Below, one piece after another: positions 1 to 43,230 of a stretch of DNA of 64,000 bases; the stretch's first letter is position 1; the number at the start of each line of letters is the position of its first letter. Below the pieces are notes generated by a model that worked only from the letters and a program-made list of their open reading frames with translations, ran no database searches and was not told the origin of the DNA. The DNA lies in assembly GCA_001793945.1 (NCBI GenBank), contig MGIW01000005.1:57923-121922 (forward strand). The letters are read 5' to 3'. This stretch comes from Candidatus Wolfebacteria bacterium RIFOXYD12_FULL_48_21 (GTDB lineage: Bacteria; Patescibacteriota; Minisyncoccia; UBA6257; UBA9933). Made by a program: the position numbers and the translations under genes.

Positions 1-2189
1 CGAAGCAGTTGTTTAGTCGGGTCGCAACTCATATCACGCTCTCATCGCTGTTTTATGATACGAAGGTATACCAGCGCAGGCCCGGAGGGACCGAGCATCG
101 CGTTGAAGAAGTGGATTATGCAAAGCTCGCCGGCAAGCTCGCCATAGGATCATATAAGTTGAATGTATTCCATGTCGAAGCATTACATCGGCTGTTTGCG
201 CGCAATGCGGCGAACAGACAGATAAAGGTGTCATGGAGCGAACTGCTTGATCTGTTCAAGAAGGGATATTTTGATAAATACACCGAAGAACTAGAGGGGT
301 ACTATAACCTGATGGTCGGGCGGAAGTTTTTGCCGAACACGCCGGCGATCGCGAACTTTGGAAACCATCTCGGCATGGGAAGCGCATGTTTTACATTGGG
401 TGTTGCGGATTCTATCGAATTGATCATGGATACGCTCAAGTCCGCGGCGGTTATATTTAAGTCGGGTGGTGGCGTAGGCTATAACTTTTCACATTTGCGA
501 CCGGAAGGCGATTTTGTGAAAACGACAGGAGGCACTGCTTCGGGGCCAATCAGCTTCATGTCCATGTTCGATAACATGACCGAGGTCATCAAGCAAGGCG
601 GCATTCGCCGAGGCGCGAACATGGGTATTTTAAACAGCAACCATCCCGATATAGAAAAGTTCATCAAGGCAAAAGAGGGCAACAAGGCGTTGCGCAATTT
701 TAATATTTCGGTCATGTTGATGCCGGAGTTCTGGAAAGCGCTTGAAGAAGGGAAGCCGTATCAGCTGTTGAATCCGAGGAGCGGTAAGGTGGTAAAAGAA
801 GTGGATCCGGAACAGTTGTTTGATCTTATTGCCTATCAGGCATGGGAATCGGCAGAGCCGGGAGCGTTGTTCTTTGATAATATCAACGAGCATAATCCGT
901 TCTTGAAATCCATGGGCCCGATCGAAAGCACGAACCCGTGCGGCGAAGTGGTCTTGTACCCATATGAAAGTTGCAATCTTGGCTCGATCAATGTATGGAG
1001 CTATGCGGAAAAGAACGGAGGCAAGAAGGCAATATTCAATTGGGAGCGTCTTGCGGCTGACATTCAGGTTTCGATGCGTCTGCTTGATAATGTCATCGAT
1101 GTAAACAAATATCCGATGCCCGAGATTGAAGCCATGACATTGGCAACCAGAAAGATCGGTTTTGGCATGATGGGCCTCGGCGACCTGTTGTACGAACTTG
1201 AGATCCCGTACGATTCCAAGGAAGGTTTCGCGTTCATGGAGGAGCTTATGGAGTTCTTAAATTATCAGACCAAGGTCGCATCCGTCGATCTTGCAAAGGA
1301 GCGCGGCCGCATGCCGATGTTTGATAAGTCTTCATACAAAGATGGCAAGATGCCTTTCTCGGCATTTAAAGACAAAAAATCGTGGAGGCAGGATTGGAAG
1401 GGATTGGTCGAGAAGGTAAAGAAGTACGGCATCCGCAACGGGTTTACCACGGTGCTCGCACCGACGGGTTCCATTTCGATGATCGCGGGATGTTCGTCGG
1501 GAATCGAACCGGTTTTCAGTCTTGTGTTTGAAAAAAGCATATCAATCGGCAGTTTCTTTTATGTCGATCCGGTGTTTGAAGATCGCATGCAACGGGAAGG
1601 GTTGATGGACGACGCGCTCTTAAAGGATGTTTCGTCGACCGCGGGAAGCGTGCGAAGCATCGGTTACATGCCTCCGAAATTGAAGAAGGTATTTGTGACA
1701 TCTATGGATATCGCGCCGAAGGATCATGTGCGGGTGCTCGCCATTTTGCAGCGCTGGACCGATTCTTCCATTTCTAAAACAAATAACTTGCCGGCAACGG
1801 CGACCGTTGATGATATTAAAGAGATTTATCTGTTGGCGCATGAACTGGGGTGCAAGGGCGTTACCGTGTATCGCGATAAATCATTGACGGCTCAGGTGCT
1901 GAACGCAGGTACCAAGAAAGGAGATAAGGAGCGGGAAGATAAAAGAAAGGAAAGCGAAATGACCGTCATCAAGGATGAAAAAGCGAAAGGAATGACGATC
2001 TACCATAAGGCGGGGGCGGTCACGAGCGCGGTAGAACTCGGCCTGTCGCCGGCACCTTCGACGCTCAACGCGGAAGATTTCACCGGCTCGCTAAAGGAAC
2101 TGACTCATTGCCCAAGCTGTAAAACAAAGCTGGTGCGGCAAGAAGGTTGCCGCAAATGCCCAAACTGCGGCTGGGGATTGTGTAGCTAA
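1..2189 (+). CDS. nrdJ: Ribonucleotide reductase, class II (adenosylcobalamin-dependent-like), 5'-partial or TTG-initiated
   Basis: TNPCGEV active-site motif. C-terminal Cys zinc-ribbon (CPSCKTKLVRQEGCRKCPNCGW) typical of monomeric class II RNR. The ORF runs to the window edge with no upstream stop. Confidence 0.75.
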   Translation, partial: KQLFSRVATHITLSSLFYDTKVYQRRPGGTEHRVEEVDYAKLAGKLAIGSYKLNVFHVEALHRLFARNAANRQIKVSWSELLDLFKKGYFDKYTEELEGYYNLMVGRKFLPNTPAIANFGNHLGMGSACFTLGVADSIELIMDTLKSAAVIFKSGGGVGYNFSHLRPEGDFVKTTGGTASGPISFMSMFDNMTEVIKQGGIRRGANMGILNSNHPDIEKFIKAKEGNKALRNFNISVMLMPEFWKALEEGKPYQLLNPRSGKVVKEVDPEQLFDLIAYQAWESAEPGALFFDNINEHNPFLKSMGPIESTNPCGEVVLYPYESCNLGSINVWSYAEKNGGKKAIFNWERLAADIQVSMRLLDNVIDVNKYPMPEIEAMTLATRKIGFGMMGLGDLLYELEIPYDSKEGFAFMEELMEFLNYQTKVASVDLAKERGRMPMFDKSSYKDGKMPFSAFKDKKSWRQDWKGLVEKVKKYGIRNGFTTVLAPTGSISMIAGCSSGIEPVFSLVFEKSISIGSFFYVDPVFEDRMQREGLMDDALLKDVSSTAGSVRSIGYMPPKLKKVFVTSMDIAPKDHVRVLAILQRWTDSSISKTNNLPATATVDDIKEIYLLAHELGCKGVTVYRDKSLTAQVLNAGTKKGDKEREDKRKESEMTVIKDEKAKGMTIYHKAGAVTSAVELGLSPAPSTLNAEDFTGSLKELTHCPSCKTKLVRQEGCRKCPNCGWGLCS

Positions 2190-31073: not shown

Positions 31074-31328
31074 ATGGCAGGTAATAAGATTGATTTTATA
31101 AAACGCTATAAGGAGCTGGTAGAGAAAGTAGAAAAAGGAGAAATAGCTATCGGAGATGCATGTTACGAAATAGGAAGAGGCATGGCGGTAAGGACATTGA
31201 GGATCGATCCGAAACTGGAAGGAATCATGAGAGAAGCTGAGGAGTTTGAGTCGTCTCCCAAAGAAACCCAAGGGAGCAGAGAGGAACGATGGGCTAAGTT
31301 AAAAAACAAGATCGAAAGTTTGCGATAA
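31074..31328 (+). CDS. Hypothetical small protein, translationally coupled to recQ
   Basis: 84-aa ORF. Its stop lies 3 nt before the recQ start. Confidence 0.35.
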   Translation: MAGNKIDFIKRYKELVEKVEKGEIAIGDACYEIGRGMAVRTLRIDPKLEGIMREAEEFESSPKETQGSREERWAKLKNKIESLR

Positions 31329-31331
31329 GCC

Positions 31332-32849
31332 ATGAAAACCCTCCTTAAAAAACATTTTGGATATGAGGAATTCAGGCCGCTGCAGGAAGAGATCATCAAG
31401 AGGGTATTGACCGGGAAAGACTGCGTCGTATTGATGCCGACGGGAGGAGGAAAATCCCTGTGCTTCCAGCTCCCGGCGCTTATCTTGGAAGGTGCGGTGA
31501 TCGTTATTTCGCCTCTTATTTCGTTGATGAAAGATCAAGTGGATGCGCTGTGCGCAAACGGCATTGCGGCGGGCCTGATCAACAGCACGCTTTCTCAAAG
31601 TGAGATTACGGATGTCATGGAGCAAGTAAGAGAAGGGGCGATAAAGATCCTCTACATAGCTCCGGAACGATTTGCCGTGCCGGGATTTGAGAGTTTTTTG
31701 CATGCACTGAACATAGGGTTGATTGCCGTCGACGAGGCGCATTGCATCTCCGAATGGGGGCATGACTTTAGGCCGGATTATAGAAACTTAAGATCGTTAC
31801 GGAGCAAATTCCCGACGGTTCCGATCATCGCACTTACCGCCACCGCAACCGAAAAAGTGCGCGAAGATATCGTTAAGCAGCTCAATATAGAAGATGCAAA
31901 AGTTTTTATTTCCAGTTTTAACCGGCCTAATTTAAGTTACGAGGTATTGCCCAAAAAGGATTCGATTAAGACGGTCATATCATTACTGAGTAGCTATAAA
32001 GACGAAAGTAGTATCATCTATTGTTTTTCGCGCAATGATACGGAAAAGTTGGTCACCGAATTGAAGAAGTATGGATTCAAGGCTGCGGCGTATCATGCGG
32101 GGTTAAATCAAAAAACAAGAAAAGAAAATCAGGAAAAATTTATCCGTGACGAGATTGACATCATGGTCGCTACTATTGCATTCGGCATGGGGATCGATAA
32201 GCCCGATGTGCGACTGGTCATTCATCACGGTTTGCCGAAATCGATAGAGGGATATTATCAGGAAACCGGACGGGCCGGGCGCGACGGACTGCCTGCCCGG
32301 TGCGTACTCCTTTTTTCGTATGCCGACAAATTCAAACATGACTATTTTATTCGCGCCGTCACAGATAAGATAGAGCGGGAAAAAGCAGAACAAAAGCTCG
32401 AGAGCGTCCTGACATACGGGACTCTTTTTGGATGCCGACGCCGGTTTTTATTGCGTTACTTCGACGAAGGATATGATAAAAAAAATTGCGGGAATTGTGA
32501 TGGATGCGTCAAGCAAGCTCCGCTCGAAATACACGCGATGCCACTTAGGGCGGTAAAGCAGAAAGTTGCGAGTGCATCCGTTTCGGGGAGTGCTCGCGGT
32601 AGCGCTCTATTTGAAGAGTTAAGGGCTATAAGAACACAAGAAGCACAACGATTGAGCGTACCGCCATACATTATCTTCGGAGACAAAACACTGAAAGAGA
32701 TGGTAGCACATCTCCCGCAGACTCCAGCCGAGTTCTTGGAAATAAACGGAGTAGGCGACCAAAAACTCGCCAAGTTCGGAGAACTATTTATGGGTGCTAT
32801 TCGGCGGTATGAGGAAGTAAATAATAAGGCTTCCGAAAGGGATTGCTGA
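31332..32849 (+). CDS. recQ: ATP-dependent DNA helicase RecQ
   Basis: Walker A in the context LMPTGGGKSLC. DEAHCISEWGHDFRPDY. Zinc-binding CRRRFLLRYFDEGYDKKNCGNCDGC. C-terminal HRDC domain. Confidence 0.9.
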   Translation: MKTLLKKHFGYEEFRPLQEEIIKRVLTGKDCVVLMPTGGGKSLCFQLPALILEGAVIVISPLISLMKDQVDALCANGIAAGLINSTLSQSEITDVMEQVREGAIKILYIAPERFAVPGFESFLHALNIGLIAVDEAHCISEWGHDFRPDYRNLRSLRSKFPTVPIIALTATATEKVREDIVKQLNIEDAKVFISSFNRPNLSYEVLPKKDSIKTVISLLSSYKDESSIIYCFSRNDTEKLVTELKKYGFKAAAYHAGLNQKTRKENQEKFIRDEIDIMVATIAFGMGIDKPDVRLVIHHGLPKSIEGYYQETGRAGRDGLPARCVLLFSYADKFKHDYFIRAVTDKIEREKAEQKLESVLTYGTLFGCRRRFLLRYFDEGYDKKNCGNCDGCVKQAPLEIHAMPLRAVKQKVASASVSGSARGSALFEELRAIRTQEAQRLSVPPYIIFGDKTLKEMVAHLPQTPAEFLEINGVGDQKLAKFGELFMGAIRRYEEVNNKASERDC

Positions 32850-32875
32850 TAATAAGACTGGCATCGCGTAAAAGC

Positions 32876-33013
32876 GTGTCATCCCGTTGAAAAACGGGAT
32901 CCAGAGCCATTCCCCGCATTGTAATTCCCGCGAGTGAGGGCCTGTCCTCGACTTGATCGGGGACGGGAATCCAGTGTCCCTCGCATTGTCATTCCGGCCT
33001 CCGAGCCGGAATC
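32876..33013. repeat. Cluster of three palindromic repeat units
   Basis: gtgtcatcccgttgaaaaacgggatccag...ttgtaattcccgcgagtgagggcctgtcctcgacttgatcggggacgggaatccagt...ttgtcattccggcctccgagccggaatc. Confidence 0.8.
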
Positions 33014-33123
33014 TGCTAGTCATTTGGTGTCGTTTGGTTGCCAAATTCAACCTTTTCTCTTACAATACGGAGGTGTTTTGAGCCTATGTCATCAGTTATT
33101 GGTTATTGGTTGTAGGTTAATTT

Positions 33124-33212
33124 GGAGAGGTCGCATAGAGGCCTAGTGCGGCGGTTTGCTAAACCGCTATGCGGGTTAAACCGCATCGAGGGTTCGAATC
33201 CCTCCCTCTCCG
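33124..33212 (+). tRNA. tRNA-Ser (anticodon GCT), class II with long variable arm
   Basis: Acceptor GGAGAGG. 3-bp D-stem. Loop TTGCTAA. Variable arm TGCGGGTTAAACCGCA. T-arm GAGGGTTCGAATCCCTC. Discriminator G. Confidence 0.85.
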
Positions 33213-33417
33213 CAGAGACAATTTAGTATCGGATAGACCCGAGTGTCTCAAAAAGCATCTAAAGAGTGCAATTGTAGTAACGCTCTTTAAGTATCATGTA
33301 ATGGAATTTATATGAAATAGATAACCGCTTGCAAACCATATATAAGGGCGTACAATAAGTACAAGAGAAGACTTACCGCTAAGCTTTTGGAAATATTAAC
33401 TCTTAAATAGAGATTAT

Positions 33418-33855
33418 ATGCATCTATCAAATAAAAATATAATTATCATGACATTAGTATTGTCAGTTATATTAAATGCCTATCTTTTATTTTTACCAAA
33501 AAAATTGATCGTTACTAAAGAGATTGCATGGTCAACGGATAGTATGAGTGCAAGAGGTTATTTAGAGCCAGTAAATTATGAGGAGCCAAAAGATTGGAAT
33601 ACAATATTTTTTATTGATGCTTTAAATATTGGGGAGAGAGAAAAAGCAAGGTTTTTTGCAAAAGAGATTGTTGTTGCAGGCGGAGTTTTAATCAATCTTA
33701 ATCTTAAAGAATATCCTATAGTAGAAGCTAATGAGGGAAAAATCGTTGCCCAAGATAATACTTATAGGTTTGAGATTACAAAAGATGAAGTGTCTATTAC
33801 AGACAAAGATGGGGAGGTGGCGAGGTTAAGCGATATGTATAAAATTGAATTATAA
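33418..33855 (+). CDS. Hypothetical membrane-anchored protein (AT-rich island gene A)
   Basis: 145-aa ORF with an N-terminal TM helix. GC is markedly lower than the flanks. Confidence 0.35.
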   Translation: MHLSNKNIIIMTLVLSVILNAYLLFLPKKLIVTKEIAWSTDSMSARGYLEPVNYEEPKDWNTIFFIDALNIGEREKARFFAKEIVVAGGVLINLNLKEYPIVEANEGKIVAQDNTYRFEITKDEVSITDKDGEVARLSDMYKIEL

Positions 33856-33961
33856 ATATTGAAAAAATAAAAACTATGTTTTATCGGAATTGTAATACTC
33901 TAAAATAGAAGTTCTTATCCCTTATGGGTATTACTATTAGAAATAACTTTAGAAGTAAAAT

Positions 33962-34270
33962 ATGAAGAATTATTTTGGGAAAAATAGGAAACTGATTTTT
34001 GCAATATTAATCGCTACAGTTCTATGGTCTGTCGGAAATTTTTATTTAAGAAGCAAATTCCATTCTGGCGAATGTGTGCGGGCACTTGATGGATACACTT
34101 GGCATATAAACAATTATAGGTTTGGAAAATATTTTTTGATGGGATGGCAGGGTAATGCATGGGGCAATGAAGTGAAAATGGACAAAGACATTCTCGAAAG
34201 GGAAGATATTTCCGGAATAATAGCTTATCATCAAGTTGTTTGTCCCGAGTATAATCCAAATAATAATTAA
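33962..34270 (+). CDS. Hypothetical membrane-anchored protein (AT-rich island gene B)
   Basis: 102-aa ORF with an N-terminal TM helix. Confidence 0.3.
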   Translation: MKNYFGKNRKLIFAILIATVLWSVGNFYLRSKFHSGECVRALDGYTWHINNYRFGKYFLMGWQGNAWGNEVKMDKDILEREDISGIIAYHQVVCPEYNPNNN

Positions 34271-34373
34271 AGATAGTATTTAATTATGTGAACGGGAAAA
34301 AATAAAATTATGGAAATCATCTTTGCGATAATAGTTGGCTGGTATATTTCTGAAAAATTGATTAATAAATGAA

Positions 34374-35012
34374 GTGAATATAAAAGACATAAAAAAATCT
34401 ATTTACCAAAAAAGAGCAGAAGATCCTGCGGTGTGGGCTCTCGCTGGTTTTAGAAATGAAGAAATAGGTAAGTTTTTCCTAAGAAAATATCGCTCATACT
34501 ATTGGCGATTAGAACAAGAACACTTAGAATTGGCATCGGGGGATCTTCTAAAGAAGAAAAGGAGATTCAATCACCGAGATGGGGATTTACATCGATATGT
34601 ACTGATGTTTTTCGGCTATGCTATCGAAAATTATCTTAAAGGCATTTTAATTAAAAGAGGCTGTAGTCCTATAGAGACTGATGCTAAAAGTAAGCTTCGC
34701 TTGGTTGCGTCCATATCAAATCACAAGCTCGTAGATTATTTTAATAATGTTTTCAGTACTACGCCGGATAAAATAGTGGAAGAAGCACTTAAAAATTTGC
34801 AGAGAGCTATTGAGTCTGGCAAATACGGAGTACCAAAATACGAAGATCAATATTATTCTTTTACCGCAAACTTTGATCAGACAATCATTATTGCAAAAGG
34901 ATTAATAAAGAAAATTAAAAAAATATTAAGCCCCAACCCAACCACCCCAAATCCACCACCGCTAAAACCTCAAAAAATCCTTATACTGATTGCAGGTTTG
35001 GGGGTACTATAA
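34374..35012 (+). CDS. Hypothetical protein with a C-terminal Pro-rich linker and TM anchor (island gene C); GTG start
   Basis: Contains RDGDLH (an Rx4H, HEPN-like spacing; speculative). Ends PNPTTPNPPPLKPQKILILIAGLGVL. The start codon sits 1 nt after the stop of a 20-aa TM mini-ORF at 34310-34372. Confidence 0.3.
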   Translation: MNIKDIKKSIYQKRAEDPAVWALAGFRNEEIGKFFLRKYRSYYWRLEQEHLELASGDLLKKKRRFNHRDGDLHRYVLMFFGYAIENYLKGILIKRGCSPIETDAKSKLRLVASISNHKLVDYFNNVFSTTPDKIVEEALKNLQRAIESGKYGVPKYEDQYYSFTANFDQTIIIAKGLIKKIKKILSPNPTTPNPPPLKPQKILILIAGLGVL

Positions 35013-35033
35013 AAGAATCCGAATACTAATCAA

Positions 35034-35120
35034 ATGGAAAAAGATTTCAACAGGTGGAATGAACACAAGAAGCGAGTAGAGGGCGTAGATCAGAAATTTC
35101 TTTTTAAACAAGGAGAGTGA
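35034..35120 (+). pseudogene. Truncated paralogous fragment of the N-terminus of the downstream MazF/PemK-like gene
   Basis: MEKDFNRWNEHKKRVEGVDQKFLFKQGE* parallels MLKDFFKWHSEKEKIHNRESGVYFYERE at 35349 and ends at an in-frame stop. Confidence 0.45.
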
Positions 35121-35348
35121 AAGAAAAACTCGAGACATTGCTCGAGCTTTTCCTAAAATTATCACCAGAGCCGAAGCTCTGGATCGGTGGGTTCCCCCAA
35201 AAGTAATTTAAGTGTAGGCCGTGCTCAGAATAAAGTCAAAACAAAATATCTACATACGAAATATCCGCTTCACACATAGTGAATATATGGCAATATATTT
35301 TTTAAAATTTGTACTGGATTAGTTGGCCATGCTATCATTGTTTCAAAT

Positions 35349-35732
35349 ATGTTGAAAGACTTTTTCAAATGGCATAGCGAGAAAGAGAAAATACACAATA
35401 GAGAAAGCGGTGTATATTTTTATGAACGAGAGATTTGGTGGGCTAGTCTGGGTTTGAATATTGGATACGAAGAAGACGGTAAAAATGAAAAGTTCGAAAG
35501 ACCGATTTTGGTTTTAAAAAAATTCAATAAGTATATTTTATGGGCATTGCCGTTAACAAGCAAAAATAAGGAAAGTAAATATTACTACCCATTCGAATTT
35601 AAAGGAGAAAAATATTCGGTCATTTTATCTCAGCTAAGAATTATCAGTAGCAAGAGGTTATTAAGGAAATTAGGCCAGATGCCCGAAGATGATTTCTCTA
35701 AAATTAGAGAGTCAATAAGAAAGCTTGTATAA
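35349..35732 (+). CDS. Type II toxin-antitoxin system PemK/MazF-family endoribonuclease toxin homolog (orphan)
   Basis: Matches the EndoA/MazF pattern GVYFYEREIWWASLG...ERPILVLKKFN...ALPLTSK...SVILSQLRIISSKRL. No MazE/PemI-sized ORF immediately upstream. Confidence 0.6.
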   Translation: MLKDFFKWHSEKEKIHNRESGVYFYEREIWWASLGLNIGYEEDGKNEKFERPILVLKKFNKYILWALPLTSKNKESKYYYPFEFKGEKYSVILSQLRIISSKRLLRKLGQMPEDDFSKIRESIRKLV

Positions 35733-36101
35733 AACGAAACCCCTTCTTGCGAAGGGGTTTCTCGGAGGCCGAAGCCCATTTATAAAGATATTGTAACAAG
35801 TAGGCAGTCAAAGTCAATAGCTCAAAAATAAAGGGAATAATATATATTATGCGAGCGAGCATCGAAATACAAAAGGAGATATAAACAAAAGAGCCGCGAA
35901 GCGCGACCCTTTTTAATGACATTATTAGTATAGCAATAAGCCGACTAAAGTCAAGAAAAGAAAGTGCTTAACCATAAACTCTGGCCCGTGTCGCATAATT
36001 ACTTAAGGGGTCGGGTACCTTCATCCCAAACTCTCAGACGAGAACAAAAAAATGCGGAAAGCTCGAAGCTTTCCGCATTTGCGAAAGGGGTTGCCGCGCG
36101 G

Positions 36102-36416
36102 TTACGCGGCAGGGCGGTAGCGGAGAACCGTGGGGCTTACCCGCACCGCCGTTTTGATTTTGTGGGGTACGCACCGAACGCCCGTGCGCCTTGAGGGATG
36201 CCAATCCCGCTGGCTCAAGGGGATCATGTTCGGCCCGGCAGGGTCGGCGACCAGCTCAATGGGGACATACCCCTTTTGGGCGGGGTCCCGAAGCGGGTCG
36301 GGGGCGAAGCCGTCATCGAATTCCATGCCGAACAGTTCGTCGGCCCGCATCTCGCCACCCGTCAGTGCCGCACAGGGGCACTTCTGGTCTTTACCGCAAT
36401 AAAGTACTTTCGCCAT
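36102..36416 (-). CDS. Hypothetical protein in the GC-rich block
   Basis: Strong SD (aaggagg) 6 nt before the ATG. About 62% GC. Terminator hairpin downstream at about 36043-36075. Confidence 0.35.
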   Translation of the reverse strand: MAKVLYCGKDQKCPCAALTGGEMRADELFGMEFDDGFAPDPLRDPAQKGYVPIELVADPAGPNMIPLSQRDWHPSRRTGVRCVPHKIKTAVRVSPTVLRYRPAA

Positions 36417-36593
36417 GACTAACCTCCTTAGGGTTATTAGGGAAGTAATAAAATATACTGTTTTTAATCTATCATGTATTTATATATTTGTCAAGGGCTT
36501 CATTGACAAACCACATAGGCGATGGCATATTTATCGCAGGTGGGTCATGATGGCTCAATAAGATAACAATGCACATTAAGAAGGAGGGTGTTT

Positions 36594-37049
36594 ATGAAGT
36601 TCTTCATTCCGCTCAGTATGGTAACTGAACGAGGCGGTAATAGCGATCCTTACGCATCGCTTGCACATGGGGCAGTGTATGGACCCTACGAAAGTGACAG
36701 GGAAATGCGAAAAGCATTTGCGCGCCTTGGCGCGAGTGACAGGGATAAAAAACTTGCCCTTGTCTTTGACGGTCATATAATGCCCATTGAGCAGGAGGCA
36801 ATGGGAAAACCCGAGAGCGAGAAGAGCGAGCCCGGCAATATGGACAACTATATCGCGGATGAAGATAACATCGATAAATTCAGGTGCAAAAAATGCCACG
36901 CGGTTATCATGGGTGCGGTGGTATCGCACCCCATCCATTTGCGCAGTATGCCCGGAGCCGGTTCTGGCCAGTGCCAGCGTGAAACGGTACCCTATTGCCC
37001 GAACTGCGAAACGAAGCCTGACCCCCATGGCGCTCCCGTCTACAAATAA
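36594..37049 (+). CDS. Hypothetical protein with a C-terminal Cys-rich zinc-ribbon-like region (GC-rich block)
   Basis: SD aaggaggg 7 nt upstream. FRCKKCH...CQRETVPYCPNCE. Terminator at 37081-37117. Confidence 0.35.
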   Translation: MKFFIPLSMVTERGGNSDPYASLAHGAVYGPYESDREMRKAFARLGASDRDKKLALVFDGHIMPIEQEAMGKPESEKSEPGNMDNYIADEDNIDKFRCKKCHAVIMGAVVSHPIHLRSMPGAGSGQCQRETVPYCPNCETKPDPHGAPVYK

Positions 37050-37080
37050 TGGGTGGGAGGTAGCTCCTCTGGTATATAAG

Positions 37081-37117
37081 CCCGTCGCGTCTTCGGACCG
37101 CTGACGGGCTTTTTTTG
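37081..37117 (+). terminator. Rho-independent terminator closing the GC-rich block
   Basis: cccgtcgcgtcttcggaccgctgacgggcttttttt. Confidence 0.65.
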
Positions 37118-37176
37118 TTTAGTTTTACTTGGATCATCGTGGCTATCACGAACCGATTTTCATATAATGAAAACAC

Positions 37177-37779
37177 ATGACCGAACCAACCCAAAAACTG
37201 CTTGCGTTTTACGACAAGCACATCGACGAACACGGGTCCGGTCCGCGCGCGGTGGGGTGGGGGAGTGCCGGGTCGCAAAAGGTACGGTTCAAGGAATTGT
37301 CCGAGATAGGCGATTTGAACAATAGTTCCGTGCTCGATGTCGGGTGCGGGTTGGGGGATCTGTATGAATATCTCGCCGGTCGTTACGACGGCGTGGAGTA
37401 CACGGGCATAGACATCAATCCGCGCTATGTGGAGCGCGCACGGGAGGCGCACCCCGAAGCACATTTTGAGGTTGCGGATTTTGGAACATATGAAGGCAAA
37501 AAGTTTGACTACATACTTGCATCAGGTGCGTTTTCGGTAAAAATCCAGAATTATAAAGAGGTATATTTCAAGCATATCGAAAAAATGTTCGCCATGGCCC
37601 GCAAGGGGGTTGCGTTTAATATCCTCGACAAGGAACACCATCCCGACGATGAATCGTATGCCGCGTATTCGGTAGCTGAAGTACGCAATTTCTGCCTTTC
37701 CTTGACCGATAATGTCGTCATACGACACGACTATCTTCCGCACGATTTTACGGTGCTATCGGGAAAGCGCTTTATTTAG
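37177..37779 (+). CDS. Class I SAM-dependent methyltransferase
   Basis: Motif I VLDVGCGLGDL. About 200 aa. Confidence 0.65.
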   Translation: MTEPTQKLLAFYDKHIDEHGSGPRAVGWGSAGSQKVRFKELSEIGDLNNSSVLDVGCGLGDLYEYLAGRYDGVEYTGIDINPRYVERAREAHPEAHFEVADFGTYEGKKFDYILASGAFSVKIQNYKEVYFKHIEKMFAMARKGVAFNILDKEHHPDDESYAAYSVAEVRNFCLSLTDNVVIRHDYLPHDFTVLSGKRFI

Positions 37780-40585: not shown

Positions 40586-40816
40586 ATGAAAACGCTTGAT
40601 AAAAAATCGCTGTTTTGGGATGTTCGCGATATCGATCCGCAAAAAAATGCACGGTTTATAATCGAGCGGATCTTGGCGTTTGGCGACTTGGACGACTTCA
40701 AATGGTTGGTAGACAGGTACGGAGTTGAAAAGATTAAGGATGTATGCGCGCACAGCAAGGTGCTTGATAGAAAATCGGCATCGTTTTGGAACAATTATTT
40801 TCGTCGAAACGCATAA
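40586..40816 (+). CDS. Small hypothetical protein, candidate cognate partner (antitoxin?) of the downstream AbiEii-like gene
   Basis: 76 aa. Its stop lies 3 nt before the start of the next gene. Confidence 0.35.
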   Translation: MKTLDKKSLFWDVRDIDPQKNARFIIERILAFGDLDDFKWLVDRYGVEKIKDVCAHSKVLDRKSASFWNNYFRRNA

Positions 40817-40818
40817 TA

Positions 40819-41448
40819 ATGCATACAGAATCAATCCACGAAGAAACAAAGAAGGTATTGGAACTATTGTCGGCGAGCGGTGTCGTCGACGGTTTTTATT
40901 TAGCGGGCGGGACGGCGCTGGCAATACAGCTCGGGCATCGGGAATCGATCGATCTTGATTGGTTTTGCAGTGCAGGTTTTTCAAACGAACAGCTGATATC
41001 CCTCTTGGCGAAGCTGGGCGTTTTTTCGCTCACGAGCGAAGATGTTGATACGGTGCACGGTGTATTGAATGGAGTAAAAATAAGTTTTTTGAAATACGAC
41101 CATGAGCAACTGTTTCCATTTGTCGAGTTTGATGGCGTGCGAGTGGCAGACGAGCGCGATATAGCGGCGATGAAGATCAGCGCCATATCGTCACGCGGAA
41201 GCAAAAAGGATTTTATCGATCTGTATTTTCTGATGCAGAAATATCACATAACTGAATTGCTTGTGTTGTTTGAGCGGAAGCATAGCGGCATTCAATATAA
41301 CATGCTGCACATTTTGAAAAGCTTGGATTTTTTCGATAGCGCGGACGATGACCCGATGCCAATCATGCTCAAGCCGATTGAATGGCCAGAGGTTAAACGG
41401 GCGATCGAGCGGGAGGTGGACGGTTATATTGCAAAATATAGGAAGTAA
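40819..41448 (+). CDS. Nucleotidyltransferase of the AbiEii/AbiGii (DUF1814) toxin family
   Basis: GGTAL motif with RESIDLDWF (FYLAGGTALAIQLGHRESIDLDWF). About 210 aa. A start at the ATG at 40819 is preferred. Confidence 0.6.
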   Translation: MHTESIHEETKKVLELLSASGVVDGFYLAGGTALAIQLGHRESIDLDWFCSAGFSNEQLISLLAKLGVFSLTSEDVDTVHGVLNGVKISFLKYDHEQLFPFVEFDGVRVADERDIAAMKISAISSRGSKKDFIDLYFLMQKYHITELLVLFERKHSGIQYNMLHILKSLDFFDSADDDPMPIMLKPIEWPEVKRAIEREVDGYIAKYRK

Positions 41449-41450
41449 GA

Positions 41451-41508
41451 CAACCAAAAGATTTCTTCAACCGCATGGCAAAAGGGTTGTTGGATAGGGG
41501 ATAGAATG
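41451..41508 (+). repeat. 58-bp direct repeat, copy 2
   Basis: caaccaaaagatttcttcaaccgcatggcaaaagggttgttggataggggatagaatg. Confidence 0.85.
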
Positions 41509-41518
41509 GTATGGAATA

Positions 41519-41548
41519 AAAACGCCGCCGGATTTTCGGCGGCATTTT
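41519..41548 (+). terminator. Rho-independent terminator
   Basis: aaaaacgccgccggattttcggcggcatttt. Confidence 0.65.
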
Positions 41549-41561
41549 GCTGTGCGTCAAA

Positions 41562-41589
41562 AATAAAAGGTTTGACAAATACTATAAAT
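41562..41589 (+). promoter_or_regulatory. Sigma70-like promoter
   Basis: TTGACA, a 16-nt spacer, then CATAAT. Confidence 0.4.
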
Positions 41590-41655
41590 AATGCATAATT
41601 TATCCAGATAGCAAATTACAGGCCTTAAAAAATAAATAGCGGAAGGGAGAAGACC

Positions 41656-42243
41656 ATGACAGATGATCTCGGGAAGTTTATCAATGGGAGGGTTGTTTCA
41701 GAACTGGAGAAAAGGGGTGTGACCGAAGCGGATATCAACTTGGTTGTGGAAAAGGGTGAAGTATTGGCAGTCGACATATTCGTCGACGCCTTCTTGAAGT
41801 GCCTCCAGCGGGTTAAGGAGGCATTCCGTACTATGACCGGAGGCACCCGCACGACCGATGAGGTCGTTGCCGCCGGCAACTATGACTGGGTGAACTCCAT
41901 GGTCAACGGGGATAACTTCCCGATGCGGCCCATGCCCGATGGTCCCCGCGAGATAGTGTTCCTCGAATTCGATCACGATACGACATCCGAGGAAGCCCTT
42001 GCGGAAGCGGAGCGACAAGGGCTTGAGCGTCCTCTGTACGAAGACGCACTGTTTTTCGGAGAACAGCATCCCGAAGAACAGCGCAAAGACCCGATCGTAT
42101 TCCTGCACGAACCGTGGCAGGACCCGTGCGGCAACCTGAGCGTGCTGGTACTCGACTGCGGTGACAGGTACCGCTACCTGCGCCTGGGCTACTTCGGCGA
42201 CAGTTGGGATCGGCGGTGTCGGTTCGCGTTCGTCCGAAAGTAA
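41656..42243 (+). CDS. Hypothetical protein (GC-rich, likely foreign)
   Basis: 195-aa ORF at about 60% GC, with SD gggaga. Followed by a terminator at 42301-42329. Confidence 0.35.
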   Translation: MTDDLGKFINGRVVSELEKRGVTEADINLVVEKGEVLAVDIFVDAFLKCLQRVKEAFRTMTGGTRTTDEVVAAGNYDWVNSMVNGDNFPMRPMPDGPREIVFLEFDHDTTSEEALAEAERQGLERPLYEDALFFGEQHPEEQRKDPIVFLHEPWQDPCGNLSVLVLDCGDRYRYLRLGYFGDSWDRRCRFAFVRK

Positions 42244-42300
42244 CTTGGATTCTGAGAATCTTGTGCCTTGTCGGGCACTTGGACCCTTGGAATCTTTCTA

Positions 42301-42329
42301 CGGCCCTCGCTATGCGAGGGCCTTTTTTG
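42301..42329 (+). terminator. Rho-independent terminator
   Basis: cggccctcgctatgcgagggcctttttt. Confidence 0.65.
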
Positions 42330-42390
42330 TTAGAGAGCAAATATTTTTTGTATTATTGCACAATTATACTATATTTAGTACAATTAAATC

Positions 42391-43230
42391 ATGGGAAGAA
42401 AAATGGTATCCATTTCAATAGAGAAATTAAGGGAACTGTATATCGATAAATACTTATCATCCTATGAAATCGGGGAGCAATTTAATTGTTCGGATGCTAC
42501 CATTAGAAATAAATTAAAAGAGGCGGGAATCAAATTGCGATCAGGCGGTAGGAAAAAGTTCAAATATAAAAAATATTCCTTCGCGGGGAATGATACGATA
42601 AAGGCATATATGGTTGGGTTCAGAATCGGAGATCTAAATGTATATCGGCCGAGCGTCAATTCGAGAATATTAGTGATAAGGTGTCATACGACCATATTGC
42701 ATCAAGTAGATGTTATAAAATTTTTGTTTGGTAAATATGGGAAAGTAGAGGATGCAATTGGGAAAACTGGATCATATCATGTTAATGTTTATCTGGACCA
42801 GTCATTCGATTTTTTAGTGAGTAAAACAGAAATACCCCAATGGATAAAGGAGGGGGATTCTGCCGTTAAGTGGTCATTTATAGCGGGGTATGTAGACGCC
42901 GAAGGGTCTTTTAAGCTAAATCAAGGCAAGGGGCGATTTAAGATAGATGCGTACGATTACTTTATTTTGGAATGGATTAATGAATTTTTGCAAAATGAGC
43001 AGATCAATGGTAAGTTTAGGCGAATATGCGAGAAGGGGGAGCTTAAGTATGCATCCTATGTATGGAAGGATGACCTATGGAGATTGGAAGTAAATTCTGC
43101 GCATTGCTTGGAGCGGTTTATACAAGGGATGATGCCATATCTCTTACATGTCGATAGAATAAAAGATGCTAAAATAGTATTAGAGAATATCAATGAACGA
43201 AAAAAACGGGGGACAATTAAGTCATATTAG
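42391..43230 (+). CDS. Free-standing double-motif LAGLIDADG homing endonuclease-like protein with N-terminal HTH
   Basis: Motif 1 YMVGFRIGDLNV. Motif 2 FIAGYVDAEGSF. N-terminal HTH LRELYIDKYLSSYEIGEQFNCSDATIRNKLKEAG. An AT-rich gene. Confidence 0.65.
   Translation: MGRKMVSISIEKLRELYIDKYLSSYEIGEQFNCSDATIRNKLKEAGIKLRSGGRKKFKYKKYSFAGNDTIKAYMVGFRIGDLNVYRPSVNSRILVIRCHTTILHQVDVIKFLFGKYGKVEDAIGKTGSYHVNVYLDQSFDFLVSKTEIPQWIKEGDSAVKWSFIAGYVDAEGSFKLNQGKGRFKIDAYDYFILEWINEFLQNEQINGKFRRICEKGELKYASYVWKDDLWRLEVNSAHCLERFIQGMMPYLLHVDRIKDAKIVLENINERKKRGTIKSY

Follow-up and report, generated by a model that had tools for sequence, protein, structure and literature searches.

The locus considered here raises the question of what occupies the AT-rich DNA directly 3' of a tRNA-Ser(GCT) gene in Candidatus Wolfebacteria bacterium RIFOXYD12_FULL_48_21, how that DNA came to lie there and what its genes might do. 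The whole stretch of 64,000 nucleotides (nt) that was analyzed is referred to below as the window, and positions are counted from its first letter unless another locus is named. The segment from 33214 to 35990 is a horizontally acquired island situated 3' of tRNA-Ser(GCT). It is probably a small island without an integrase, located at a tRNA-Ser recombination hotspot and built as a mosaic of independent cassettes, among them a module consisting of a toxin and an antitoxin RNA. This mosaic would comprise open reading frames (ORFs) for two ORFan membrane-anchored proteins and a HEPN-fold protein, together with two copies of the toxin-antitoxin (TA) module, of which one is intact and the other decayed. 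The intact copy would combine a gene for a MazF-fold endoribonuclease (35349 to 35732) with a convergent RNA gene (35729 to 35783) that has its own promoter.

The left anchor of the island is the tRNA-Ser(GCT) gene itself, at 33124 to 33213 on the plus strand (identified by ARAGORN; Rfam tRNA, 54.7 bits), and low guanine-cytosine (GC) content begins approximately 20 nt beyond its end. Measured in 400-nt segments, GC content falls from about 0.49 before the tRNA gene to between 0.29 and 0.38 across 33.2 to 36.0 kb and recovers at approximately 36.0 kb, confirming the sharp drop described in the initial annotation. Only three 1-kb bins in the 64 kb have a GC content below 0.40, and all of them fall within the island. 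As a whole, the island has a GC content of 0.336, compared with 0.483 ± 0.018 in 558 equal-sized segments elsewhere in the window (z = -8.3; lowest value elsewhere, 0.433). The tetranucleotide composition deviates in the same manner, with an L1 distance of 0.54 against 0.188 ± 0.019 and a maximum of 0.251 in the same 558 segments. The island can thus be described as foreign and recently exchanged on the basis of composition and of synteny with related genomes, as set out below.

The closest syntenic genome is the sister genome Wolfebacteria RIFOXYB1_FULL_54_12 (loci L002 and L011). Between the window and L002, core genes in the flanks share 81 to 93% nucleotide identity and RecQ 94 to 96%, whereas the island is 100% identical over 33000 to 35500 and 97.8% identical over 35500 to 36000; to the right of the island, identity is 91% and then 82 to 87%. 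A segment without a single difference inside diverged flanks indicates recent lateral exchange. Exact copies of proteins from the window were also present in Rifle and ANAN16 aquifer assemblies and in Wolfebacteria metagenome-assembled genomes such as RIFOXYB2_FULL_49_7.

Using homologues of the class I S-adenosylmethionine methyltransferase gene that forms the right-hand core anchor for synteny (37177 to 37779, plus strand; Pfam), three more distant syntenic contigs, L131 to L133, were retrieved. In L131 (65% identity), genes for sigma70, an M16 peptidase, rpe, DUF2975, tRNA-Ser(GCT), a homologue of ORF5 (the first gene to the right of the island), the methyltransferase, PNPOx, an aminotransferase, Mur ligase and LepA were found, with neither the low-GC stretch nor RecQ, so that L131 represents an empty site. 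In L132 (67% identity), rpe and tRNA-Ser(GCT) are followed by 2.4 kb with a GC content of 0.35 to 0.39 and then by the ORF5 homologue and the methyltransferase gene; the low-GC cargo is a gene for a 736-amino-acid (aa) protein with N6_Mtase, Eco57I and Methylase_S matches. The presence of other low-GC defence cargo at the same site indicates that insertions have recurred at the 3' flank of tRNA-Ser in this lineage, making it a hotspot. Together, the empty site, the different cargo and the contrast between island and flanks in the sister genome uphold the proposal in the initial annotation that the island is foreign.

These comparisons also bear on the two other ways in which the site might be explained. 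That the low-GC stretch is native, with a composition that reflects the function of AT-rich membrane or small genes, is extremely unlikely: its genes are indeed short and partly hydrophobic, but the site is empty in L131 and differently filled in L132, the identity of the island reaches 100% in two genomes whose flanks have diverged, and its tetranucleotide signature lies far outside the range of the window. A classical tRNA island, brought in by an integrase that has since been lost together with attR, appears unlikely, although the low-GC DNA is positioned exactly at the tRNA 3' end and a direct repeat of the tRNA-Ser 3' end, CGAATCCCTCCCTCTC, of 12 to 16 nt lies 200 to 310 nt past the tRNA gene in both L131 and L132. 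From these repeats, site-specific integration at tRNA-Ser may have occurred earlier in the lineage. In the window, however, a 28-mer of the tRNA 3' end has no second copy with up to three mismatches at any position, and blastn-short and exact k-mers of 10 to 14 nt gave no repeat of 10 nt or longer in 33.25 to 38 kb; the attR that had been suggested near 37.1 kb is therefore missing from the whole window. Nor was any integrase or recombinase ORF, fragment or family match found in 33.2 to 37.2 kb among the listed ORFs or with Pfam, NCBIfam, PADLOC or PHROG, in agreement with the initial annotation. Perfect identity of the island amid diverged flanks fits its replacement as an allele by homologous recombination. 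The island would accordingly have moved recently between two diverged Wolfebacteria populations, and the likeliest route would be homologous recombination via the conserved flanks rather than site-specific integration. Two points weigh against an integrase-less island at a hotspot, namely that the island was compared with three more distant syntenic relatives only and that neither a circular form nor an att site was found for it; the entry route is one that we infer.

Further features of the tRNA flank were observed in these genomes. A GC-rich element of approximately 130 to 200 nt directly past tRNA-Ser(GCT) is strongly conserved between L131 (7230 to 7445) and L132 (1060 to 1236) and is absent from the window. 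It contains an 11-bp perfect hairpin, with closing GGATTCG...CGAATCC, and ends in the CGAATCCCTCCCTCTC repeat; it has no match in Rfam and might represent the scar of an old attR, the remnant of a tRNA-like sequence or a new RNA. The tRNA-Ser(GCT) of the window differs from the near-identical alleles of L131 to L133 in the D-arm, the anticodon stem and the variable arm, while the acceptor and T-arm are common to all (alignment A5). Between rpe and tRNA-Ser, the window has RecQ and an 84-aa ORF (31076 to 33213), and no RecQ is present there in L131 or L132. Many unrelated contigs from Patescibacteria (L014, L017, L019, L021 to L024 and L031) have RecQ beside one or two genes for tRNA-Ser, and RecQ and the tRNA-Ser allele of the window may have arrived together. 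ARAGORN additionally identified a tRNA-Ser with the unusual anticodon ACT next to tRNA-Ser(GCT) in three Patescibacteria contigs, L014 (6815 to 6902), L017 (11487 to 11574) and L026 (15148 to 15235), in the first two of which it is adjacent to RecQ.

All six ORFs of the initial annotation were recovered as described, including the one given as a MazF/PemK-like toxin. This gene, at 35349 to 35732 on the plus strand, encodes a putative MazF/PemK-fold toxin of 127 aa with an N-terminal helix extension. The protein matches Pfam PemK_toxin (E = 6e-12; 46 bits against a cutoff of 23.1) and PHROG 9567 (E = 1e-16), and an AlphaFold2 model matched MazF-mt1, SaMazF, BsMazF and EcMazF in Foldseek with a probability of 1.0 and TM-scores of 0.56 to 0.63; structure comparison places its fold nearer true MazF than ToxN. 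Two residues, R51 and T70, do not vary in the family alignment (A2), and from established knowledge of MazF we take them to be its catalytic Arg/Thr pair. The extra N-terminal helix carries the motif DFxxWxxxK. The family is large, with at least 907 clusters at 90% identity in the protein search and at least 555 JGI metagenome loci, mostly from Patescibacteria. Homologues with 28 to 40% identity are encoded by Campylobacter, Helicobacter and Nitratiruptor plasmids and by CJIE4 prophages.

No antitoxin ORF was found near the toxin gene, as the 336 nt upstream hold only a toxin fragment. For a comparison of flanks, 80 homologous toxin loci were retrieved from metagenomes (L050 to L129), and among 60 to 70 distinct loci no neighbouring gene was conserved beside the toxin; no gene of the MazE, AbrB or ribbon-helix-helix type adjoins the toxin gene in the window or is conserved next to its homologues. 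The neighbours on both sides are mutually unrelated, including rpoB/C, dnaK, ligA, ABC ATPases and membrane proteins, which indicates that the conserved unit is the toxin gene plus an RNA, a unit of approximately 0.5 kb placed in many contexts.

This predicted RNA, of approximately 55 nt, is encoded at 35729 to 35783 on the minus strand, convergent with the toxin gene, and was overlooked in the initial annotation. A promoter and terminator scan of the window revealed three minus-strand units, each with a TTGACT -35 box, a -10 box and a hairpin with a UUCG loop, the middle of which abuts the toxin stop codon. Its promoter reads TTGACT-16-TACAAT, with a TG extension (35790 to 35817, minus strand). 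The RNA begins with 5' AUAAAUGG, followed by hairpin P1 (GGGC-UUCG-GCCU), a CCGAGA linker, the terminator hairpin P2 and UCGUUUU, and the tail at its 3' end overlaps the stop codon of the toxin gene. About 75 of the 80 toxin loci show the element in their raw 3' flanks. The consensus of the family on the strand opposite the toxin is TTGACA, 17 nt, TAnAAT and approximately 5 nt, and then 5' UACAAAUGG. P1 is mostly GGC-UUCG-GCC, although at times swapped to GCC...GGC or lengthened, and is followed by CUCCGAGA; P2 is a terminator hairpin of variable sequence, after which come UCGUUUUUU and a tail extending over the stop codon of the toxin gene. Integron attC-like borders or att sites had been considered for the motifs AAAGTCAA / GCCGAAGC, which recur after the toxin copies, and were rejected when these motifs were resolved as the -35 box and the UUCG hairpins of the antisense units.

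A covariance model, R1, was built from 41 sequences. Within the 64 kb it gives a single match, at 35729 to 35783 on the minus strand (56.6 bits; E = 1.8e-13). It gives 76 matches across 74 of the 80 homologous loci, every one of them antisense and abutting the toxin 3' end. When applied to 316 kb of unrelated loci from the Candidate Phyla Radiation (CPR), it matched only the same island in L011 and, weakly, one site after a viral toxin homologue. Rfam 15 has no match at the element, even with E values of up to 10 on a 600-nt slice, and none in 14 other loci. The fold energy of the RNA in the window is -24.9 kcal/mol (z = -4.1). Across the family, 85% of cells are paired and double changes occur in 10 of 11 pairs; the covariation score of 0.387 compares with 0.179 for shuffles, none of 500 reaching it, and with at most 0.234 for slid controls. 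Covariation thus supports both predicted helices. A promoter of the form TTGAC[AT]-16..18-TAnnnT lies 2 to 8 nt before the RNA in 59 of 65 distinct loci, against 17 of 1,600 random 55-mers. Just upstream of the RNA promoter, in the portion of loci L050 to L129 that lies 80 to 200 nt beyond the end of the toxin gene, the DnaA-box-like sequence TTATCCACA (up to one mismatch) was observed in 18 of 76 loci, compared with 18 of 400 random windows; the copy in the window has none.

An alternative that we regard as improbable is that the conserved element is the 3' untranslated region of the toxin mRNA or a bidirectional terminator, the opposite promoter being incidental or serving some unrelated antisense transcript. 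In its favour, the hairpin P2 resembles a terminator and immediately follows the stop codon, and some annotated proteins run through the element, such as P0055 with its C terminus KNETPLSGGISEAEAHL. A strand test of G-U against A-C pairs was neutral (41 versus 41). On the toxin strand, however, a run of A and T precedes the hairpin, and the U-tail is on the antisense strand; the -35 and -10 boxes at the 5' end of the RNA are near consensus and far more frequent than the 1% expected by chance; and neither P1 nor the invariant single-stranded motifs have a role in a terminator. Several considerations nevertheless count against a convergent RNA that controls a toxin. Alignment A4 was fitted to the model, so that its pairing counts are inflated, and hairpins of the terminator type, such as P2, covary regardless. 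Given the neutral pair test, the assignment of the strand depends on the promoter and the U-tail only. Both the promoter and the antitoxin role are predicted from sequence, as is the toxicity of the gene product, and a protein antitoxin may be encoded elsewhere.

With these points taken into account, we consider it reasonably likely that the small RNA is the antitoxin. It could act in either of two ways. In a type I-like mode, the RNA would pair with a toxin transcript that reads through the RNA gene. The convergent arrangement favours this mode, as does the toxin strand, where no terminator precedes the RNA gene and a T-run hairpin first occurs at 35887 to 35913, so that by inferred read-through a sequence complementary to the entire RNA should be part of the toxin mRNA. 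In a type III-like mode, the RNA would bind the toxin or act as a decoy via the single-stranded motifs ACAAAUGG and CUCCGAGA. These motifs are nearly invariant among toxins that share just 50 to 68% identity, a constancy that is not needed for pairing in cis and that therefore favours the type III-like mode. Masking of the toxin Shine-Dalgarno (SD) sequence by a CCUCC of the RNA was rejected as a general mechanism, since an SD-like 4-mer is found upstream of only 16 of 72 toxin genes, the other 56 being without one. This rarity suggests that toxin mRNAs may be short-leader or leaderless. A -10 box resembling TATAATATCACT near the start codon was observed to be common to the toxin genes of L061, L074, L077 and L101.

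Also overlooked in the initial annotation was a second, decayed toxin gene (PemK'), at 35034 to 35120 on the plus strand, in which 28 N-terminal codons are kept before a stop codon; it matches the N terminus of P0132 in BLASTP at 11 of 28 residues (E = 3e-6). It is followed on the minus strand by a putative decayed or divergent antisense RNA unit (35155 to 35239), with a promoter-like TTGACT-17-TACACT (35239 to 35211) and a two-hairpin RNA (35204 to 35155) that folds in the order P1, linker, P2 and U-tail (z = -2.8). R1 scores neither this unit nor the third one in the window. The former is treated as a candidate paralogue, degraded or divergent. The third unit, at 35887 to 35954, comprises a hairpin with a UUCG loop (35887 to 35913) and T-runs on both strands, together with a promoter-like site on the minus strand (35954 to 35927). 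Found by the scan and by folding (-15.8 kcal/mol; z = -5.0), this hairpin is likely a bidirectional terminator and would form the 3' end of the toxin transcript.

Upstream of the two toxin copies, the island carries three further ORFs. ORF1 (33418 to 33855, plus strand; 145 aa) and ORF2 (33962 to 34270, plus strand; 102 aa) are ORFans, each with an N-terminal hydrophobic helix. Neither has a match in Pfam, NCBIfam, PADLOC or PHROG or a relative in scans of viral contigs, and their only relatives are Wolfebacteria entries named "hypothetical protein." ORF3 (34374 to 35012, plus strand; 212 aa) belongs to a rare family of proteins of about 190 aa. A word-indexed search returned one relative, and an exhaustive HMMER scan that covered 1.84 billion representatives returned 30 clusters, all of approximately 190 aa and aligning with residues 1 to 186 of ORF3 only. 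That ORF3 has the HEPN four-helix fold was settled by fold comparison alone, as the Pfam HEPN match was below cutoff, a PDB sequence search was empty, and PADLOC, NCBIfam and PHROG gave nothing useful. The HEPN-like Rx4H motif pointed out in the initial annotation is present as RDGDLH (residues 67 to 72), and the fold agrees with it, but the motif is not conserved in the family alignment. The invariant residues are instead E85, K89 and Y151, with H117, G149 and K150 nearly so. ORF3 is thereby unlike HEPN toxins and defence proteins (HepT/MNT, AbiV and the Csm6 HEPN), having no conserved Rx4-6H and no MNT partner. One relative adjoins a Dam-type methylase (L049), another lies beside an EcoRI-type methylase plus GmrSD/HNH (L140) and a third beside a transposase and an NYN protein (L141). 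ORF3 is a noncanonical HEPN-fold protein associated with defence islands. A 20-codon hydrophobic mini-ORF, MEIIFAIIVGWYISEKLINK, was also noted at 34311 to 34373, ending exactly at the GTG start of ORF3.

The Pro-rich hydrophobic tail that had been ascribed to ORF3 does exist, although only in this copy: residues ~187 to 212, the last ~26 aa (34929 to 35012), are an add-on found in none of the approximately 30 homologous clusters. In the sister genome, about 420 nt of extra DNA (L002:11612 to 12031) is present at the right edge of the island, between the positions that correspond to 35988 and 36017 of the window, and holds a copy, 92% identical, of the 75 nt encoding the tail (34929 to 35003). 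The recurrence of this DNA at a second place in L002 marks the tail as a recombination joint, and the extra DNA indicates that the border of the island is being remodelled.

The cargo of the island is addiction or defence like, consisting of selfish or defence cassettes, as the initial annotation had supposed. That its four or five genes make up one multigene defence or addiction system, that is, a single uncharacterized locus as had also been proposed, is very unlikely. The four intact ORFs are co-oriented and closely spaced, and the block is identical in two genomes, as might be expected of one system. The toxin and RNA pair, however, occurs without ORF1 to ORF3 in approximately 75 other contexts, homologues of ORF3 are found beside methylases, GmrSD/HNH or a transposase at loci without ORF1, ORF2 or PemK, ORF1 and ORF2 have no detectable relatives beyond these Wolfebacteria, and no island protein has a match in PADLOC. 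An island assembled from independent cassettes is the reading that these distributions leave us with.

To the right of the island, the block of approximately 1 kb at 36080 to 37120, for which a GC content of about 62% had been given, has an overall value of 0.533; only ORF5 is GC rich (0.632), and ORF6 is host-like (0.522). ORF5 (36102 to 36416, minus strand; 104 aa), with a Cys-rich N terminus and a terminator at 36050 to 36080, is an ancestral core gene outside the island. PADLOC, NCBIfam and PHROG yielded no useful match for it. Homologues with 68% aa identity are present in L131 (7561 to 7863) and L132 (3567 to 3872), with tblastn E values of 7e-46 and 2e-44, in the same orientation and position beside the methyltransferase gene, and they are likewise GC rich (0.60 in L131, which has no island). 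As it occupies the same place and is GC rich in relatives, one of them free of the island, ORF5 is an ancestral gene of intrinsically high GC content. The opposite compositional skews from which two separate acquisitions had been deduced thus do not reflect a second acquisition. In the sister genome, the ORF5 homologue has one extra G in a run of G residues (GGGTCGGGGGGCG versus GGGTCGGGGGCG; L002:12300 to 12320), which breaks the frame, and it is called there as pieces of 71 and 53 aa or of 79 aa; this frameshift reflects either a pseudogene or an assembly error. ORF6 (36594 to 37049, plus strand; 151 aa) is zinc-ribbon-like (CxxC...CxxC) and is followed by a hairpin with a T7 run at 37080 to 37116, the closing terminator already recognized in the initial annotation. 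Missing from L131 to L133 and shortened to 84 aa in L002, ORF6 is an insert specific to this lineage, placed between ORF5 and the methyltransferase gene. Family matches of ORF6 are weak and below cutoff (zf-CHY, E = 0.062; phrog_19024, E = 0.082), and a scan of viral contigs yielded no relatives.

Two other observations concern variable DNA near the island. The palindromic repeat CATTGTCATTCCGGCCTCCGAGCCGGAATC occurs twice at 32912 to 32998, upstream of the tRNA gene, and was also found upstream of the toxin gene of L074 and at L002:516 to 545; it looks like a dispersed element of the repetitive extragenic palindromic type. Between the Mur ligase gene and lepA there is a second variable spot (approximately 40586 to 43230), with a pair of DUF6922 and AbiEii genes, an ORF of 195 aa and another that is LAGLIDADG-like. 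L131, L132 and L133 lack the genes of this spot, and in them lepA comes directly after the Mur ligase gene.

Taken by itself, the island is an ordinary small defence or TA islet at a hotspot; what makes it interesting is the RNA, so far unannotated, that accompanies a MazF-fold toxin, a partnership that appears to be common in the CPR. That this RNA escaped annotation would be explained by gene callers, which ignore RNA or translate through it. R1 would provide a ready covariance model for the annotation of hundreds of "orphan" toxins. The pair, if it functions as proposed, would supply the CPR, whose tiny genomes have few known regulators, with an addiction or defence module that is extremely compact (~0.5 kb). 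The island also illustrates how episymbiotic CPR populations trade defence cargo at a tRNA-side hotspot without an integrase, and ORF5 corrects a tempting misreading, as a GC-rich gene beside an island need not be foreign.

The island resembles known tRNA-adjacent islands in its position at a tRNA 3' end, its deviant composition, its TA and defence cargo and the variation of cargo at the site, exemplified by the restriction-modification gene in L132. It differs from them in having no integrase or att repeat, in being only 2.8 kb long and in a mode of transfer that resembles allelic replacement. MazF proteins are textbook type II toxins that are taught together with their protein partner MazE. 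The toxin described here shares the MazF fold and the invariant Arg and Thr with the type II systems MazEF and PemIK, but it has an extra N-terminal helix and no adjacent protein antitoxin, and the partner conserved beside it is an RNA gene that lies on the other strand. The Rfam pemK RNA motif is named for its association with the pemK toxin; the element found here lies downstream, is antisense and has no Rfam match.

Convergent antisense RNAs that overlap the 3' end of the toxin gene are known from type I systems such as txpA/RatA and bsrG/SR4 of Bacillus subtilis, in which the toxins are small hydrophobic peptides. The Wolfebacteria module is similar to these in having a small RNA with its own promoter, convergent to the toxin and overlapping its 3' end, in a compact and mobile two-gene unit. 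It is dissimilar in that the toxin is a soluble MazF-fold protein of 127 aa and the RNA has invariant single-stranded motifs. A possible parallel exists on plasmid pVir of Campylobacter jejuni 81-176, which encodes a toxin homologue with 34% identity; downstream of its gene lie a TTGATT-17-TATAAT promoter, convergent with it, and a hairpin that abuts the stop codon. Both this gene and its homologue from a Nitratiruptor plasmid have such a hairpin, accompanied on the other strand by a -10-like box, and R1 matches neither. On pVir, CjrA/CjpT has been described as a type I system with the antisense small RNA CjrA as antitoxin (PMC10470494, PMC7826846). An aapA/IsoA-type system has also been reported on a C. 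jejuni plasmid (PMC5416894), and cjpT may accordingly encode a peptide; a link between cjpT and the PemK-like gene of pVir is a lead only.

Type III systems (ToxIN, AbiQ/antiQ and CptIN) likewise combine an endoribonuclease toxin with an RNA, and the single-stranded motifs could be sites for toxin binding or processing. In the present case, however, the RNA is single copy, antisense and downstream, a search with Tandem Repeats Finder and for repeats revealed no tandem repeat array upstream of the toxin gene at 35.0 to 35.35 kb, and the toxin is the nearer relative of true MazF. The module therefore has the defining features of neither type I nor type III systems and is without the protein antitoxin that type II requires. 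Whether it exemplifies a TA architecture of its own, in which a large MazF-fold family without a protein antitoxin is run by a convergent RNA of approximately 55 nt carrying ACAAAUGG and CUCCGAGA, is a tentative proposition to which we give a little less than an even chance. Such a small-RNA-guarded branch of MazF would blur the boundaries among types I, II and III, as it would join a type II-type toxin to an RNA antitoxin of the type I or type III kind.

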